From the IMG/VR virus record IMGVR_UViG_649989947_000012, positions 1 to 39,670 of that record: a stretch of DNA of 39,670 nucleotides. One strand, given 5' to 3'. Below the pieces are notes generated by a model that had not been told where the DNA came from, searched no databases, and saw only the letters and a list, made by a program, of their open reading frames with translations. This DNA comes from a virus (taxonomy: Duplodnaviria; Heunggongvirae; Uroviricota; Caudoviricetes). Of this stretch, positions 2,403-35,390 are shown piece by piece. Made by a program: the position numbers and the translations under genes. Position 1 is the first letter of the stretch; each line of letters opens with the position of its first letter.

Positions 2403-2891
2403 GTGGCACAACGCGGTGTAAACAAAGTCATCCTGATTGGTACCCTGGGGCAAGACCCGGAGATCAGGTATATACCAAATGGCGGAGCGGTCGGAAGACT
2501 CAGCATCGCAACGAATGAATCATGGCGCGACAAGCAAACGGGCCAACAGAAAGAGCAAACAGAATGGCATAGAGTCGTTTTGTTCGGGAAACTTGCTGAA
2601 ATTGCGAGTGAGTATTTACGAAAAGGTTCTCAGGTCTACATCGAAGGGAAACTTAAAACCCGTAAGTGGACAGATGACGCCGGTGTAGAACGTTACACGA
2701 CGGAAATTATCGTCAGCCAGGGCGGAACTATGCAAATGATCGGCGCCCGCCGCGACGATTCACAGTCCTCAAATGGCTGGGGGCAATCAAACCAACCTCA
2801 AAACCACCAGCAATACAGCGGTGGCGGCAAACCTCAGAGCAGCGCCAATAACGAACCTCCAATGGACTTTGACGACGATATTCCGTTTTAG
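2403..2891 (+). CDS. ssb: single-stranded DNA-binding protein, phage/plasmid type
   Basis: OB-fold SSB signature ([46 protein letters not shown]) and acidic tail ending [11 protein letters not shown]; GTG start. Confidence 0.9.
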
Positions 2892-2930
2892 AGTTAACTT
2901 GTGAGTTATTTGTAAATAGTTCATACACAG

Positions 2931-2958
2931 GCCCCTGTTAATACAGGGGATTTTTATT
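2931..2958 (+). terminator. rho-independent terminator after ssb
   Basis: Hairpin CCCCTGT-taata-ACAGGGG followed by ATTTTTATTT. Confidence 0.55.
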
Positions 2959-3139
2959 TCTAGTAACTATAAGAGGTGTTAATTATTAATTGACAATCTT
3001 TAGTGTTTCGCGCACCTTGCAAGTATCCAATATTTACTGATTGTGGACGCATAAAGAAGATCCACAGCGTTACAAATTTGTATTTCTTTCTTCAGCAATT
3101 AAGCAGGCGACTTGCTCTATCCTGCCCAAAGGAACACGT

Positions 3140-4495
3140 ATGACACACTGCAAAGAAAATACTTGGTATGAGCGTCAAGGGTACAATACCACCCGCCCGA
3201 ATGAGATAAGGTCGGAGTATGAACGTGATCTTTCCCGGTTAATCCACTCTTCCGCTTTTAGGAGATTACAATCGAAGACGCAGGTGTTGGGATTGGGCGA
3301 AAGCGATTTCTACCGTACGCGGCTAACTCACTCTATGGAAGTAGCGCAAATTGGCGGCGGTATCTTGTCTCAGTTGTCTAAGCGCGATACAGATGAGGGG
3401 GGTAAATTCTTACCTGACCCAAGCCTGATGCAGGCTATCTGCCTTGCTCATGATATAGGACATCCCCCCTTCGGTCATGGTGGTGAGGTCGCACTAAACT
3501 ACTGCATGAGATCCTATGGCGGCTTTGAAGGTAACGGGCAGACACTGCGTATACTCTCCAAACTGGATAAGTACACCGAAACCAATGGGCTGGATCCCAC
3601 CCGTAGACTTATTTTAGGCGTACTGAAATATCCAGCAAGCTATTCAGAGGTCGTCAATGAGAGGGCTTACAGCCAGTTACAGCCAAGAAGCAATGAGTGG
3701 TTGTTTAAATCATCCGAATTTAAGCCCCCGAAATGTTACCTGGACTCTGAGGAGAACACTGTTAGATTCGCACTCCAACCTTTTGATAGTGATGATGTTA
3801 AGTTATTCAAAACGGTAAAAACTACCGCGTTGAATAAGCACAAGGAAACAATATATAAAGCACTGGATACAACGATTATGGACTTGGCTGATGAGATATC
3901 CTACTCACTCCATGATCTTGAAGACGCAATTTCTCTGAAGATGATCGACAAAAAAATGTGGGAGGAGCACTTCGAGGACAAATCCCATTTATTTGCAGCT
4001 TGCCAATGCGACTCGTTTAATCTAAAAGCCGATGATGTAGCTGAAAAACTGTTCGGCGAAAGTTATCTACGCAAGGAGTGCATAGGGACACTTGTTCATC
4101 TGATGATCACTAGCGTTAAGCTTGAAGTGCAGAACTCTGATTTCAAAAGTAAAATTTTACGCTATAAAGTAGCACTTCCTGCCGCGGTAGAAGAGTTACG
4201 TAAAGCCATTTTTGAGCTGGTTAGGAACAAAGTTATTCAGCACGAAAACGTCCAACTATTAGAGTTCAAAGGTCAGAAACTGATTGTGGAACTATTCAAT
4301 GTACTGGCAAATGACCCAATACGTTTTCTCCCGACAGAAACTCGAAAGAAATATAATCAAGAGGAAGCAAAAGGTGATGATAAAAAAATGCGCGTCATTT
4401 GCGACTATGTTTCAGGCATGACAGATGATTACGCTACTCGACTGTATGAGAAAATATTTGTACCGAGAAAAGGCTCTATTTTTGATAGACTCTGA
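3140..4495 (+). CDS. dGTPase-family HD-domain dNTP triphosphohydrolase, 451 aa
   Basis: Dgt-family motifs RTRLTHSMEVAQIG, LAHDIGHPPFGH, MDLADEISYSLHDLEDA and C-terminal DYVSGMTDDYATRLY; start at internal ATG 3140 with an AAGGA ribosome-binding site; AT-rich relative to flanking phage genes. Confidence 0.8.
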   Translation: MTHCKENTWYERQGYNTTRPNEIRSEYERDLSRLIHSSAFRRLQSKTQVLGLGESDFYRTRLTHSMEVAQIGGGILSQLSKRDTDEGGKFLPDPSLMQAICLAHDIGHPPFGHGGEVALNYCMRSYGGFEGNGQTLRILSKLDKYTETNGLDPTRRLILGVLKYPASYSEVVNERAYSQLQPRSNEWLFKSSEFKPPKCYLDSEENTVRFALQPFDSDDVKLFKTVKTTALNKHKETIYKALDTTIMDLADEISYSLHDLEDAISLKMIDKKMWEEHFEDKSHLFAACQCDSFNLKADDVAEKLFGESYLRKECIGTLVHLMITSVKLEVQNSDFKSKILRYKVALPAAVEELRKAIFELVRNKVIQHENVQLLEFKGQKLIVELFNVLANDPIRFLPTETRKKYNQEEAKGDDKKMRVICDYVSGMTDDYATRLYEKIFVPRKGSIFDRL

Positions 4496-4814: not shown

Positions 4815-6143
4815 CTGATGAATCCCCTAATGATTTTGGTAAAAATCATTAAGTTAAGGTGGATACACATCTTGTCATATGATCAAATGGTTTCGCGAAA
4901 AATCAATAATCAGACAACAAGATGTGCGAACTCGATATTTTACACGACTCTCTTTACCAATTCTGCCCCGAATTACACTTAAAACGACTCAACAGCTTAA
5001 CGTTGGCTTGCCACGCATTACTTGACTGTAAAACTCTCACTCTTACCGAACTTGGCCGTAACCTGCCAACCAAAGCGAGAACAAAACATAACATCAAACG
5101 AATCGACCGATTGTTAGGTAATCGTCACCTCCACAAAGAGCGACTCGCTGTATACCGTTGGCATGCTAGCTTTATCTGTTCGGGCAATACGATGCCCATT
5201 GTACTTGTTGACTGGTCTGATATCCGTGAGCAAAAACGGCTTATGGTATTGCGAGCTTCAGTCGCACTACACGGTCGTTCTGTTACTCTTTATGAGAAAG
5301 CGTTCCCGCTTTCAGAGCAATGTTCAAAGAAAGCTCATGACCAATTTCTAGCCGACCTTGCGAGCATTCTACCGAGTAACACCACACCGCTCATTGTCAG
5401 TGATGCTGGCTTTAAAGTGCCATGGTATAAATCCGTTGAGAAGCTGGGTTGGTACTGGTTAAGTCGAGTAAGAGGAAAAGTACAATATGCAGACCTAGGA
5501 GCGGAAAACTGGAAACCTATCAGCAACTTACATGATATGTCATCTAGTCACTCAAAGACTTTAGGCTATAAGAGGCTGACTAAAAGCAATCCAATCTCAT
5601 GCCAAATTCTATTGTATAAATCTCGCTCTAAAGGCCGAAAAAATCAGCGCTCGACACGGACTCATTGTCACCACCCGTCACCTAAAATCTACTCAGCGTC
5701 GGCAAAGGAGCCATGGGTTCTAGCAACTAACTTACCTGTTGAAATTCGAACACCCAAACAACTTGTTAATATCTATTCGAAGCGAATGCAGATTGAAGAA
5801 ACCTTCCGAGACTTGAAAAGTCCTGCCTACGGACTAGGCCTACGCCATAGCCGAACGAGCAGCTCAGAGCGTTTTGATATCATGCTGCTAATCGCCCTGA
5901 TGCTTCAACTAACATGTTGGCTTGCGGGCGTTCATGCTCAGAAACAAGGTTGGGACAAGCACTTCCAGGCTAACACAGTCAGAAATCGAAACGTACTCTC
6001 AACAGTTCGCTTAGGCATGGAAGTTTTGCGGCATTCTGGCTACACAATAACAAGGGAAGACTCACTCGTGGCTGCAACCCTGCTTACTCAAAATCTATTC
6101 ACACATGGTTACGTTTTGGGGAAATTATGAGGGGATCTCTCAG
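4815..6143 (+). mobile_element. IS10 (IS10-Right type), complete 1329 bp
   Basis: Outside end CTGATGAATCCCCTAATGATTTTGG at 4815 and inside end (complement of CTGAGAGATCCCCTCATAATTTCCCC) ending at 6143; encodes an intact 402-aa transposase. Confidence 0.9.
4922..6130 (+). CDS. tnp: IS10 transposase, 402 aa
   Basis: Full-length ORF beginning MCELDILHDSLYQFCPELHLKRLNSLTLACHALLDCK, recognised as the Tn10/IS10 transposase. Confidence 0.95.
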   Translation: MCELDILHDSLYQFCPELHLKRLNSLTLACHALLDCKTLTLTELGRNLPTKARTKHNIKRIDRLLGNRHLHKERLAVYRWHASFICSGNTMPIVLVDWSDIREQKRLMVLRASVALHGRSVTLYEKAFPLSEQCSKKAHDQFLADLASILPSNTTPLIVSDAGFKVPWYKSVEKLGWYWLSRVRGKVQYADLGAENWKPISNLHDMSSSHSKTLGYKRLTKSNPISCQILLYKSRSKGRKNQRSTRTHCHHPSPKIYSASAKEPWVLATNLPVEIRTPKQLVNIYSKRMQIEETFRDLKSPAYGLGLRHSRTSSSERFDIMLLIALMLQLTCWLAGVHAQKQGWDKHFQANTVRNRNVLSTVRLGMEVLRHSGYTITREDSLVAATLLTQNLFTHGYVLGKL

Positions 6144-6331
6144 CGTTAAGCTGTTGAGTCGTTTTAAGTGTAATTCGGGGCAGAATTGGTAAAGAGAGTC
6201 GTGTAAAATATCGAGTTCGCACATTTTGTTGTCTGATTATTGATTTTTGGCGAAACCATTTGATCATATGACAAGATGTGTATCTACCTTAACTTAATGA
6301 TTTTGATAAAAATCATTAGGGGATTCATCAG
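6144..6331 (-). mobile_element. inverted 188-bp fragment of an IS10 outside end
   Basis: Reverse complement of 4815-5002 with a few substitutions (for example TTTTTATCAAAATC versus TTTTGGTAAAAATC), abutting the inside end of the full copy. Confidence 0.85.
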
Positions 6332-6340
6332 CGCTCTGCT
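6332..6340. repeat. 9-bp target-site duplication CGCTCTGCT, right copy
   Basis: Matches 4806-4814 exactly. Confidence 0.8.
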
Positions 6341-6597
6341 TCTTTGTTGAACATACCTGGATATATTCTCTTGTACAACTGAAACGTACCATTCATATTC
6401 CTGTAAGCATTCTCAGCAATTTCAATGGAGATTTCATTTCCGGCGTTAAATACAGGAATGAATATCTCAAGAATATCATTCTTTAACTTCTGTTTAAGTT
6501 TCTTTTTTTCAACAATATTAGAATAAAAGATACCTAAAAAAAATGTGCAGATACCAGGAAGCCAATTATTAACGAAAACCTCAGACAAAGCGTCCAC
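6332..6597 (-). pseudogene. 5' part of the small membrane-protein gene split by the IS10-derived element
   Basis: ORF 6328..6597 begins MDALSEVFVNNWLPGICTFFLGIFYSNIV (hydrophobic N-terminus) and runs into the IS end, where it meets a stop inside IS10 sequence. Confidence 0.45.
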
Positions 6598-24047: not shown

Positions 24048-27000
24048 TCAACTCTCGCGTAGTCATTCATCAACGGATCATCAATTGACAGTGGTACCGT
24101 GCGCATAACGCCCGGCTGAGGCGTGCTGACCTTTACGACAGTTCCCTGGCCTTTCGCCGAGTCTTTGGTGTGCTCTTCAATCCTGGCAAGCAATGAGGTC
24201 ATCTGCGCAAACAGCCGCTTCGTTTCACCATCAAGTGAAACGGTATTATCAGCCAACTGCATTGTCGGCTTGGCACCGGAACCGCCAAGGTCACTAATAA
24301 CCTGCCCGTCTATCTGCATACGACCGGTTGGTTGCTGCAAATCGTTGGCGGCAGTCGTCACCTGGGACGTGGAGGCTGGTTCAGGCGCATTATTTTTCCG
24401 CATCCCCGGCGAGTTGCGGAGTTTATCGAATAGTCCATCAATCCCCATTTGTGCGCCGAGATGGTCAAAGTAACTTGAGTTGTTGGCCACCGGACGCGCC
24501 TCTTCAACTGGCATCGGAGTATCAACATACACATTGCCAGCTGCTGTTGCGGTCCCCTTCTCTCGTGCACGTTCTTCTAGCGTTCCCTGAACGACTTCCC
24601 GACGCATCCCCCGGCCATTCATGAATTTGTTGACCAGATCGTTAACGCCAACAGCATTGCCGATTTTGTCGACCAGACCGCCTTTCTCAAACGGGCTATC
24701 ACCAGGGGTAAACGCCAGGCCAGTATACTGATCGATAACAGCGTTATCAGGCAGTGGTCCCCTCACTCCATATTGCGCCCCACCCTGTGCTCCTGCTCCA
24801 GGTGTATAGATTTCACCACCTAAATAGCGAGCACGATGAGTATTGACCTTGATCGCGTACTCACGGTTTTCTTTCGATAAGTCACCGGTGCCTTTTTTCC
24901 ACTTATTAATAGTGCCAAACCCAGCATTATATGCAGTGATGGCCTCGTTTAAGTCTCCATTGGCTTGCTTAAGATACTTGCTCATGAGAAGAGCCGCAGC
25001 TTCTGCCGATTTCACAGGATCAAACGATTCACCTTCAGCTAAGCCAGTCTCTTCACGAGCAATCCCCGTGAACTGAAACATCCCCAGAGCACCGGTTTGG
25101 GATTTTGCATACGGATTACCACCAGATTCAGTTGCAGCAATCGCGTAAAGAGTGCCTTCTGGAAGACCGTATTTATTCTCTAGTTCGGCAAAATACGGAG
25201 CCAACTTATCGAGATTTGCCTTACCTTCAGCGCCAAGACTTCCGACTTTTACATCTAAGTTGCCATTGTTGTAAGTATCCGCAGCTTTCTGAATGTCATT
25301 CCTGGTGCCAGTGGTATTAAGCGACGATGATGACGAGCTATTTTGACCAATAGCTTTATCAATTTTCTGCAACGCGCTATTGCCCGTTTCTACGGCATTT
25401 GCATTGATAATCTGATTGGCAGTTTGTTTAACTGTTTTATTGCTATCTTTCGCTGTGTCCAGTGCCGCATTTATCACGCGGGTAGCAATATTACTCTGTT
25501 TGGCATCGGATTCAGTTTTAGAATCAGACGTCTCCTGGTGGCTATTAACCGGAGCTTTTAACTCCGGAGTGATTTCTTTCGCATTAGCCTCGCCGATCGG
25601 ATTGGGTATTTTTGATACAATCATTGCCGCAGGGGTATTTTTAACGGCATCAACCGCTGCATCTAATGCTTTACCAGGTAAATTTTTAACCCCATCCCAA
25701 ATATTACCAGCCGCCTCTTTAATGTGTTTCCCTGGGTTCTTAATGAAATCAATTGCACTATCAATTGCATCACTGAAAACCTGTTTCAGGTTATCAACAG
25801 TAAAGAAGTCTTTGATGGCATCCAGCTTTTCAAGCAGCTTATTAGATGTATCGCTAAACCATGCTGAAACAGCATCACCAATCTTTGCTGTGTAATCTTC
25901 GAACTTGGTAGAAATGGTGTCGCCAAGGTTAGAAATATATGTTTCTAAGTTGGTAATCCCACTATCAATGGCCTGGGCAATACTTTCCGTCGAAAATGAT
26001 TGCAACATATTGCCGATATCCTCAAATCCAAGTGATTTGAGAACCTCACCAATGGCGCTGCTAATACCAGATACCAGTCCCCCCATATCAAGAACATTGG
26101 CTAACGTATAAGCGGCTTTTTGCTGGAATGATGGCTCTTGTCCTGATTTAAGCCCAAACGCTCGACGTTGCGCTTCTGTATCATTCCAACCGGTTACCGC
26201 ATCATAAATACCTCCAGCCACTGTGCCGACTAAGGGAATTGCGCGTAACGCCCCTTTACCAACTGCCTTTAATCCAAATTTACCTGCTGCCCGGGCAGCC
26301 AAATCTCCACCTTCATGGGCGATAGTCTTCTTGCCACCACCGCGTAGCATTCCTACAAGTTTCTTTGCCCCCAGAGCGCCAAAAGCGAGTGCTCCAGCTT
26401 TTTTCAGCATGCCACGCCCCATTAACAACGACGCGACGCCACCGGCCCCCTTCCCTAACAGGCTAAATAGTTTGGACAGCAAGCCGCCCTTCTTTTTCCC
26501 GGTGTTTTTGGCTATCTGATCAAGGGCGCTGAGAATCTTGTCATTGCCCTCTTTAATTTCGCTGGTCTGCTCCTGAAGTTCCTGAACCGTCCGTTTTTGG
26601 GTGTTAACCTGAACGACATCGGCACTATTTTGCGATTTACGCCTAAAAAAACCTTTTCTACGGCTGTTATCGTCATTGCCACGAATCACATCGGCAATAG
26701 ACTTTCTGGCGCCATTAAGCGATCCACCAACTTCTTTTGATATCCCGCCAAGCTCCTTCCCTGCTGCCCACAATGGACCAGCAACGGCATAACCTAACGC
26801 ATCGACGGCACGAGTCTCTGAAGGGTTACCTATGCCTTCAGCTACTTTTGACAGTTTTTTTAATAAACCTGATTCAGCATTTAGACGCTCATCATCCTCT
26901 TTGCGCCTGGCCTTTTCAGCACGTTCAGCACGGGCATCTTCCGCTGCGGCCTTACTCCCTGACTTTCCAATAAAACGACCACGCGCATCGCGTTGGTTTT

Positions 27001-31246: not shown

Positions 31247-31560
31247 GTATTTTTAAGTCGCGAATGCTATCTTTTCGCATCATGTTGACCTTTTAATCGT
31301 TCAGGCTTATAGTTCCGCCGTCGTAGCAAATTCTGCGACCGGGTTTAGCAGCCTGAATGATTGTGCGGACAGCCGCAGATATCCGATATTGCGGTATTTT
31401 TGTGTCCGTAAAACCGCGTTACGCCCAAATTATGGTGGGGCGTGATGGGGAGGCTTCGGCCTGCTGGTTTCACAATCGCCAGTCTGCTAACCCCGTCACG
31501 TCCTGCCACCTGTTTAGCAGCGGGTAGCAGGTTGTTAAACCTGATTGTGAGGCCGTAACT

Positions 31561-32894: not shown

Positions 32895-32911
32895 TTTGCT
32901 CTAATAAATTT
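32895..32911 (+). promoter_or_regulatory. C1-operator-like 17-mer TTTGCTCTAATAAATTT
   Basis: Upstream of kilA; followed by TTCTAAGT. Confidence 0.45.
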
Positions 32912-34656: not shown

Positions 34657-34706
34657 TAGATTGCTCTAATCTGGAGTCACCTGGCGTTTTCAGTTTGAGG
34701 TCGGAG

Positions 34707-34952
34707 ATGCAATCTGATTTTTTACAGTTAGCAATCGCTTTTGCAGGATATGTTTGTATTGGCTTCTGTGTATACATGATCAGCCGAAAAATGCTTGTCG
34801 ATATCGACCGCAAAGAACAAGCAGAGAAGATCTTAGTATGGATTTTCTTTGGCGCGGTCTGGCCATTAGGGATCATGTTTGCTGCAACATTTCTTCTGAT
34901 GTGGATATTCACCCTTCCAGGTGATTTCTATAGAAAAAAAGCCAGACATTGA
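34707..34952 (+). CDS. small membrane protein (81 aa from internal start)
   Basis: Two hydrophobic segments; GAGG ribosome-binding site before the internal ATG. Confidence 0.35.
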   Translation: MQSDFLQLAIAFAGYVCIGFCVYMISRKMLVDIDRKEQAEKILVWIFFGAVWPLGIMFAATFLLMWIFTLPGDFYRKKARH

Positions 34953-35075
34953 TACAATCGTTGCGGGTGCTTGAGGCTATCTGCTTCAGGCATTACCCGA
35001 AAAGCAGATAGAAGAAAGCCCCAGATAACATTACGCGTCCTGCAAGACGCTTAACATTAATCTGAGGCCATATCT

Positions 35076-35282
35076 ATGCTTAGCATACGTAGATTAGCCT
35101 CTTACCGACCAAAAGGTCAAGGAGAAGCAGGCTATGAAGCAGCAAAAAGCGATGTTAATCGCTCTGATCGTCATCTGTTTAACCGTCATTGTGACGGCAC
35201 TGGTAACGAGGAAAGACCTCTGCGAGGTACGAATCCGAACCAGCCAGACGGAGGTCACTGTCTTCACAGCCTACGAATCTGA
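35076..35282 (+). CDS. mok-like reading frame overlapping hok
   Basis: 68-codon ORF that starts upstream of and overlaps almost all of the hok-like gene, as in hok/mok/sok loci. Confidence 0.4.
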   Translation: MLSIRRLASYRPKGQGEAGYEAAKSDVNRSDRHLFNRHCDGTGNEERPLRGTNPNQPDGGHCLHSLRI

Positions 35283-35289
35283 AAGGTAA
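35134..35289 (+). CDS. hok: Hok/Gef-family type I toxin (51 aa)
   Basis: Hand translation MKQQKAMLIALIVICLTVIVTALVTRKDLCEVRIRTSQTEVTVFTAYESER; ribosome-binding site GGAGAAG. Below the 60-aa ORF-track threshold. Confidence 0.75.
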   Translation: MKQQKAMLIALIVICLTVIVTALVTRKDLCEVRIRTSQTEVTVFTAYESER

Positions 35290-35366
35290 GAGACCTGGCG
35301 GGGAGAGATCTCCGCCACTCTTCGTGTGTCAGGTATCCTCAATGCACCCTTTCCTCTCCAAATAAA

Positions 35367-35390
35367 AAAGCTCCCGAAGGAGCTTTAAAA
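35367..35390 (-). terminator. rho-independent terminator ending the minus-strand structural operon
   Basis: Hairpin AAGCTCC-ttcg-GGAGCTT followed by TTTTTTATTTGG on the minus strand, just after the stop at 35406. Confidence 0.55.

Follow-up and report, generated by a model that had tools for sequence, protein, structure and literature searches.

The locus at 34965–35349 of the window (here, the whole analyzed stretch of 39,670 nt of viral DNA) is very probably an intact hok/mok/sok type I toxin-antitoxin module of the hokD/hokW subgroup, carried by a P1-like (IncY) phage-plasmid and working in the classical manner. The features of the module and its immediate surroundings are listed below; element names (tac, ucb, dcb, fbi) follow Le Rhun et al. 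2022 (PMC9841398).

34931–34958, plus strand: hok/mok mRNA promoter, TAGAAA, 16 nt, TACAAT, with TG before the −10 (extended −10); promoter scan.
34965–35349, plus strand: core of the hok/mok mRNA, from tac box to fbi box; homology limits, alignments and fold.
34965–34976, plus strand: tac (translational activator) box, GGGUGCUUGAGG; pairs with fbi in the minimum free energy (MFE) structure, covariation.
34965–35022, plus strand: tac-stem hairpin, tac paired with ucb; Rfam alignment, isolated fold of −26.9 kcal/mol (z = −5.16).
35016–35022, plus strand: ucb, AAGCCCC; named as in PMC9841398.
35018–35068, plus strand: hairpin sequestering the mok Shine-Dalgarno (SD) sequence against ucb; folds (z = −5.04), complement of the Sok stem.
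35064–35067, plus strand: mok SD sequence, GAGG, upstream of the mok ATG at 35076.
35076–35282, plus strand: mok leader frame, 68 codons; ORF listing, +1 frame relative to hok.
35095–35101 (approximately), plus strand: probable dcb box, UAGCCUC; read from the sequence, complementary to GAGGC in the mok SD region.
35120–35124, plus strand: hok SD sequence, AGGAG, 9 nt upstream of the hok ATG.
35134–35289, plus strand: hok toxin gene, 51 aa, MKQQKAMLIALIVICLTVIVTALVTRKDLCEVRIRTSQTEVTVFTAYESER; ORF listing, Pfam, PHROG, alignment to HokD and R1 Hok.
35296–35317, plus strand: GC-rich 3′ stem-loop, −16.3 kcal/mol (z = −3.95).
35337–35349, plus strand: fbi (fold-back inhibitory) box, CCUCAAUGCACCC; can pair with tac, leaving a single U bulged.
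35367–35386, no strand assigned: P1-backbone hairpin, terminator of the minus-strand bplB operon; called as a terminator on the minus strand only.
35091–35120, minus strand: candidate sok promoter, −35 TTGACC (35120–35115), 18-nt spacer, −10 TAATCT (35096–35091); read by hand, conservation.
35009–35084, minus strand: predicted Sok antisense RNA, approximately 71–77 nt; ends transferred from K-12 sokC and 933W sokW through the alignment.

The hok ORF, which opens with ATG and falls under the 60-aa default of the ORF lister, agreed with the preliminary description of a 51-codon gene with a good ribosome-binding site encoding a Hok/Gef-family peptide. Its product matched Pfam PF01848 (HOK_GEF) over all profile positions (1–42 of 42; E = 1.3e-20, 73.1 bits, cut-off 22 bits) and PHROG 251, “MokW-like host killing” (4e-31). 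It showed the traits by which a Hok/Gef protein is recognized, being a small predicted membrane toxin of approximately 50 aa with an N-terminal hydrophobic helix and the conserved TRK..LCE core. Identity was 94% to HokD (RelF) of Escherichia coli K-12 and 40% to Hok of plasmid R1, and residue 37 was Ser, where most relatives have Gly. The scores obtained with the NCBIfam Hok subfamily model NF007279 (46.5 bits, curated cut-off 73) and the HokA equivalog NF007290 (36 bits, curated cut-off 89) fell below threshold; these models describe other Hok subgroups, and RefSeq still names an identical protein HokD. The block containing the hok SD sequence and ATG was 95% conserved in the hokD/W-like group.

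The leader upstream of hok was equally recognizable. When the region was compared by BLAST with 50 loci fetched via the Hok protein, homology started at approximately 34951–34963 and ended at 35349. The hok −10 was the leftmost stretch homologous to other hok loci, the predicted +1 lies at approximately 34965, and the unit 34965–35349 was common to approximately 45 other loci. Rfam model RF01794 matched 34965–35139 on the plus strand along its entire length (model positions 1–157 of 157; 114.9 bits, gathering score 59 bits, E = 1.2e-25). This model, named “sok”, represents the hok mRNA leader in sense orientation and stops at the hok AUG; it also matched the hok strand of the annotated K-12 hokC/sokC and 933W hokW/sokW loci and of an R1-type locus. 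Because it hits the hokC strand in K-12, where sokC is annotated on the other strand, the plus-strand hit identifies the hok leader, with the Sok antisense lying within it. The preliminary description had proposed a check against RNA models for hok mRNA and Sok; the outcome was positive, with the correction that the strand recognized by the model is that of hok and not that of Sok.

The fold-back structure expected of such an mRNA was also found. The full-length hok mRNA folded to −165.6 kcal/mol (z = −7.55) and was closed by 5′-to-3′ tac/fbi pairing, with 12 of the 13 fbi bases paired to tac. The tac box was invariant within the hokD/W-like group and covaried with fbi between groups. The alternative tac/ucb stem, which is the first hairpin of the RF01794 consensus, was the MFE structure of the isolated 5′ 60 nt; in the 354-nt truncated mRNA (34965–35318) the MFE structure was a tac/downstream “metastable” hairpin, not the tac/ucb stem. 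Four pairs with compensatory changes were observed in the hairpin that sequesters the mok SD sequence. By analogy with PMC9841398, the UAGCCUC motif is the probable dcb box; it overlaps the sok −10 and was 94% conserved. UAGCCUCUUAC and GUAAGAG had been considered as ucb and dcb and were dropped, since the element definitions of PMC9841398 differ. An invariant helix between CUCUUAC (35099–35105) and GUAAGAG (35285–35291) was predicted by RNAalifold only and showed no covariation.

At the 3′ end, the 35296–35317 helix was conserved with two covarying pairs, and by homology it would be the protective terminal hairpin of the 3′-processed hok mRNA, a role described in PMC9841398. This stem-loop and the second hairpin at 35367–35386 correspond to the GC-rich hairpins that had been noted downstream of hok. 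The second hairpin was the only candidate terminator for the hok transcript and has no U-tract on the plus strand; the native terminator that directly follows fbi in relatives is missing here, the homology to the family ending at 35349. In approximately one-third of the related P1-like plasmids in a spread sample, an IS4-family element of the IS421/IS186 type was inserted between the 3′ hairpin and fbi. One example is NZ_CP157116.1, in which the element (2851–4200) begins right after the equivalent of approximately 35310, within the GC-rich 3′ hairpin, and splits fbi from hok. IS186 occupies the same relative spot beside K-12 hokC, and the copy in the window is uninterrupted. The GC-rich 3′ hairpin thus looks like a recurrent target of the IS186 family.

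The mok ATG sits 58 nt before the hok ATG, with the same spacing as in plasmid R1 (mok ATG at 116–118, hok ATG at 174–176, mok of 70 aa and out of frame; PMC9841398). The mok ATG and its SD sequence were conserved in the alignment of hok loci, and a frame of 55–71 codons opened by an ATG 57–58 nt upstream of hok was present in 35 of 41 loci. The difference between the 58-nt spacing found here and the 57-nt spacing of hokW and hokC comes from an extra T at 35117, and it is because of the 58-nt spacing that mok is out of frame with hok. This frame shift should be of no consequence, since ribosomes translating mok have to reach no further than the hok SD sequence (PMC9841398). The hok gene had been described as fully overlapped by a 68-codon mok-like frame. 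The frame is present, but the overlap is not complete: the mok stop codon lies 7 nt before that of hok.

On the opposite strand, a candidate sok promoter and a predicted stable antisense hairpin RNA were identified. The promoter was absent from the list produced by the automatic scan because its −10 matches TATAAT at only three of six positions; the TAnnCT motif of this −10 was kept in the hokW, R1-like, and Photorhabdus loci, with no clear match in hokC. Sok is predicted to start at 35084 and to end at approximately 35009–35014, co-linear with the annotated sokC and sokW. Its 5′ end would be an unpaired tail of 15 nt that covers the mok start codon; a long hairpin and a U-rich 3′ tail would follow. 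The predicted folds had energies of −29 to −33 kcal/mol (z = −4.8 to −6.0). The antisense RNA had been expected on the minus strand near 35040–35140; the strand was right and that interval takes in the promoter and the 5′ half of Sok, but the RNA extends further left (from approximately 35084 to approximately 35009). The stretch shared by the Sok 5′ tail and the mok start (35069–35090) was the least conserved part of the leader, with a mean identity of 63% compared with 88–100% for its neighbors among hokD/W-like loci, a variability that would fit a recognition or specificity determinant. It also suggests that this stretch has diversified in a way that limits cross-talk among hok/sok copies sharing a cell.

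Covariation across the family was examined in 31 distinct loci from Escherichia, Shigella, Kluyvera, Citrobacter, Pantoea, Photorhabdus, and an R1-type plasmid. From this alignment, RNAalifold recovered four helices: the closing tac/fbi pairing, the first and the 3′ hairpins, and the hairpin that sequesters the SD sequence. In these four helices together, 96.8% of cells were paired, compared with 41–45% when partners were slid, and nine pairs were changed on both sides. Cells with double changes numbered 56, whereas shuffled alignments gave 19.1 ± 3.3 and none of 500 shuffles reached 56. Within tac/fbi, GGGU...ACCC was replaced by GGGC...GCCC (U-A to C-G) in 12 sequences, and GAGG/CCUC by GAGA/UCUC in Photorhabdus and by GAAG/CUUC in Citrobacter. 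That the locus might be a chance small ORF accompanied by chance hairpins is therefore extremely improbable. Beyond the small size of the ORF nothing favors such an origin, and it is ruled out by the Pfam match (E = 1.3e-20), the Rfam match (E = 1.2e-25), and the covariation; homologs in 4738 of 5426 complete E. coli genomes also argue against it.

Among characterized systems, hokW-mokW-sokW of 933W and Sakai prophage 5 (Sp5) shares 87.6% nucleotide identity over the whole module and the same order of elements; the two toxins, both phage-borne, differ at five of 51 residues. The hokW-sokW locus is a proven type I toxin-antitoxin system in which sokW is a 71-nt RNA complementary to the leader (PMC8621323). 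It differs from the present locus in that the mok ATG lies 57 nt upstream and in frame (here 58 nt, +1 frame), the Sok 5′ tail/mok-start stretch is only 64% identical, and the module lies within an integrated lambdoid prophage with its own flanks. The hok/mok/sok (parB) locus of R1 is plasmid-borne and has the same architecture, with tac, ucb, mok SD sequence, dcb, 3′ hairpin, and fbi (PMC9841398); as here, the mok start lies 58 nt ahead of hok in a different frame, which stays open for approximately 70 codons. Most of its leader sequence differs, the Sok hairpin being shorter and the first hairpin longer, and its tac and fbi boxes carry compensated differences (GGCGC paired with GCGCC).

The two K-12 relatives are less complete. 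The hokD (relF) gene of the Qin prophage bears the name that RefSeq applies to the present locus, but it directly follows relE and lacks the entire leader (no tac, mok, or sok), so that homology begins only at approximately 35120; the present locus, unlike K-12 hokD, is a complete module. The hokC (gef)-mokC-sokC locus belongs to the same family (approximately 74% nucleotide identity, Rfam score of 118 bits), and its annotated sokC was used to place the Sok 5′ end. It differs in having a Sok hairpin 18 nt shorter, mokC in frame with hokC, and an fbi lost to the IS186 insertion.

The element that carries the module is a P1-like IncY phage-plasmid. The C4 antisense RNA (31428–31513) and the a1/b1 target sites (31307–31359) of the P1 immI region scored above the Rfam thresholds, and C1 operator-like sites were found at 2367, 31230, and 32895. 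The hok module lies downstream of kilA and repL and upstream of bplB (tail tube), and it occupies a variable slot between repL and bplB. The module was not present in reference P1 or P7 in the homology comparison: homology to both stopped at 34670, inside the C1 operator Op55, and resumed at 35364, and between the equivalents of these positions P1 and P7 carry rlfA, rlfB, and pmgF. Thus, the hok module and an 81-aa ORF replace rlfA-rlfB-pmgF of reference P1. At the break in Op55 (34660–34671), ATTGCTCTAAT was retained and the right half was replaced. The 81-aa ORF (34707–34952, plus strand), which lies between repL and hok, matched PHROG 3772 of unknown function, gave no Pfam hit, and contains two hydrophobic segments; its stop codon abuts the hok −10, and it is foreign both to reference P1 and to the hok module.

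The module had been proposed to act in addition to any phd/doc system elsewhere. A tblastn search of the window with Phd and Doc queries found neither. Both phd and doc are present on plasmid NZ_CP069885, approximately 42 kb from a hok locus that is 100% identical to the one studied here, so this plasmid type carries two addiction modules and the proposal holds for it. According to RefSeq, NZ_CP069885.1 also has genes for a SIR2-family protein (24439–25743) and a TnpB RNA-guided endonuclease (43751–44959), both outside the stretch matched to the window.

A complete IS10 was found elsewhere in the window (transposase at 4922–6130, ends at 4815 and approximately 6143). Next to it, without a gap, lies a second copy of the IS10 outside end, inverted and 188 bp long (6144–6331, 96% identical to 4815–5005), so that the unit has two outside ends and two RNA-OUT genes (4860–4929, minus strand; 6217–6286, plus strand). 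The 1517-bp unit (4815–6331) is flanked by the 9-bp direct repeat CGCTCTGCT and therefore appears to have been transposed as one piece. No PLSDB plasmid covered at least 80% of a junction query spanning 5950–6480.

The working of the module was transferred by homology from R1 hok/sok (PMC9841398) and Sp5 hokW-sokW (PMC8621323), relatives for which post-segregational killing, stabilization, and Sok-dependent suppression have been shown (PMC8621323, PMC9841398); its transcripts, their half-lives, and the killing phenotype are expected to follow these models. The weak extended −10 promoter would give a stable hok mRNA in which the 5′ tac pairs with the 3′ fbi, the mok SD sequence is buried against ucb, and both mok and hok stay untranslated. 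Slow 3′ trimming to the GC-rich hairpin would remove fbi, after which tac would pair with ucb and the mok start region would open. As long as the plasmid is present, short-lived Sok made from the strong opposite-strand promoter would pair with the mok start region, block translation of mok, on which hok translation depends, and mark the duplex for RNase III. Once Sok is no longer produced, as after plasmid loss, translation of the stored mRNA would begin, and the 51-aa Hok would insert into the inner membrane and kill the cell. A caveat is that related loci are usually present on the chromosomes of E. coli hosts, and the Sok RNAs of these loci might cross-protect.

The physiological role of the module is less certain than its identity, with plasmid addiction as the default for a plasmid prophage. 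The same module could instead serve mainly in phage release: on induction, Sok would be lost, and early membrane damage by Hok would bring earlier lysis and a higher yield. The precedent is hokW-sokW of prophage Sp5, which has been shown to act in this way and is the closest relative studied by experiment; its deletion halves Sp5 release (PMC8621323). The position of the present module is compatible with such a role, as it has the same orientation as the C1-repressed kilA-repL lytic operon (C1 operator-like site at 32895) and lies 0.3 kb downstream of it. Between repL and hok there is only a weak 5-bp hairpin (34909–34924), and transcription reading through on induction could therefore collide with the sok promoter. 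We nevertheless regard release as somewhat unlikely to be the main role: Sp5 is a setting other than P1-like elements, P1 has its own holin/lysozyme system, and a plasmid prophage is the setting in which hok/sok addiction is established. The two roles are not mutually exclusive. The position downstream of kilA-repL, in the same orientation and with no convincing terminator between, might even mean that the module is wired to the lysis-lysogeny switch. Read-through on induction would then hit the sok promoter and make Hok a lysis accelerator, with the module serving during lysogeny as a second addiction system beside phd/doc. This combined role is speculative and we consider it unlikely; if it were true, the break in P1 homology inside Op55 would be the scar of the rewiring.

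A role mainly in abortive infection, in which an incoming phage shuts down host transcription, Sok is depleted, and Hok is released, was judged quite improbable. When R1 hok/sok was supplied on a high-copy plasmid, T4 plating fell by 42% and plaques were approximately 85% smaller (cited in PMC8621323), but the published effect is weak and dependent on copy number, P1-like plasmids are low-copy, and the support comes from R1 and none of it from this locus. It is very unlikely that the locus is an inert relic, a hok-like sequence that is not expressed or not toxic, as is the case for several chromosomal hok loci. Many hok loci have indeed been inactivated (K-12 hokC has IS186 directly 3′, and K-12 hokD is without its whole leader), the IS421/IS186-type insertions in the sampled P1-like plasmids point the same way, and the native terminator was lost in this copy. 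Against this, every element is intact: both frames are open, and both promoters, both SD sequences, tac, ucb, dcb, the 3′ hairpin, and fbi are present and uninterrupted. In addition, the locus was kept at an identity of at least 99% in 175 plasmid records. An intact hok/mok/sok module, expected to work by post-segregational killing, is the reading that we retain.

The system is known and common, and it is already annotated in public records. The identical locus of NZ_CP069885 (IncY) is labeled “type I toxin-antitoxin system toxin HokD” in RefSeq, and GenBank MH422554 (“Punavirus P1”) names the hok locus MokW. Related modules with at least 80% nucleotide identity were found in the 4738 of 5426 complete genomes of E. 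coli mentioned above, where the median was two places in each genome; 664 PLSDB plasmids also had them. A literature search on hok in P1-like phage-plasmids found no paper discussing this locus. Nothing new is added to the understanding of hok/sok itself. The main value of the finding lies in annotation, as filters on ORF length readily overlook a toxin gene of 51 aa together with its antisense RNA. For P1-like phage-plasmids, many of which carry resistance genes, hok/sok beside phd/doc would constitute a second addiction module that helps them to persist.
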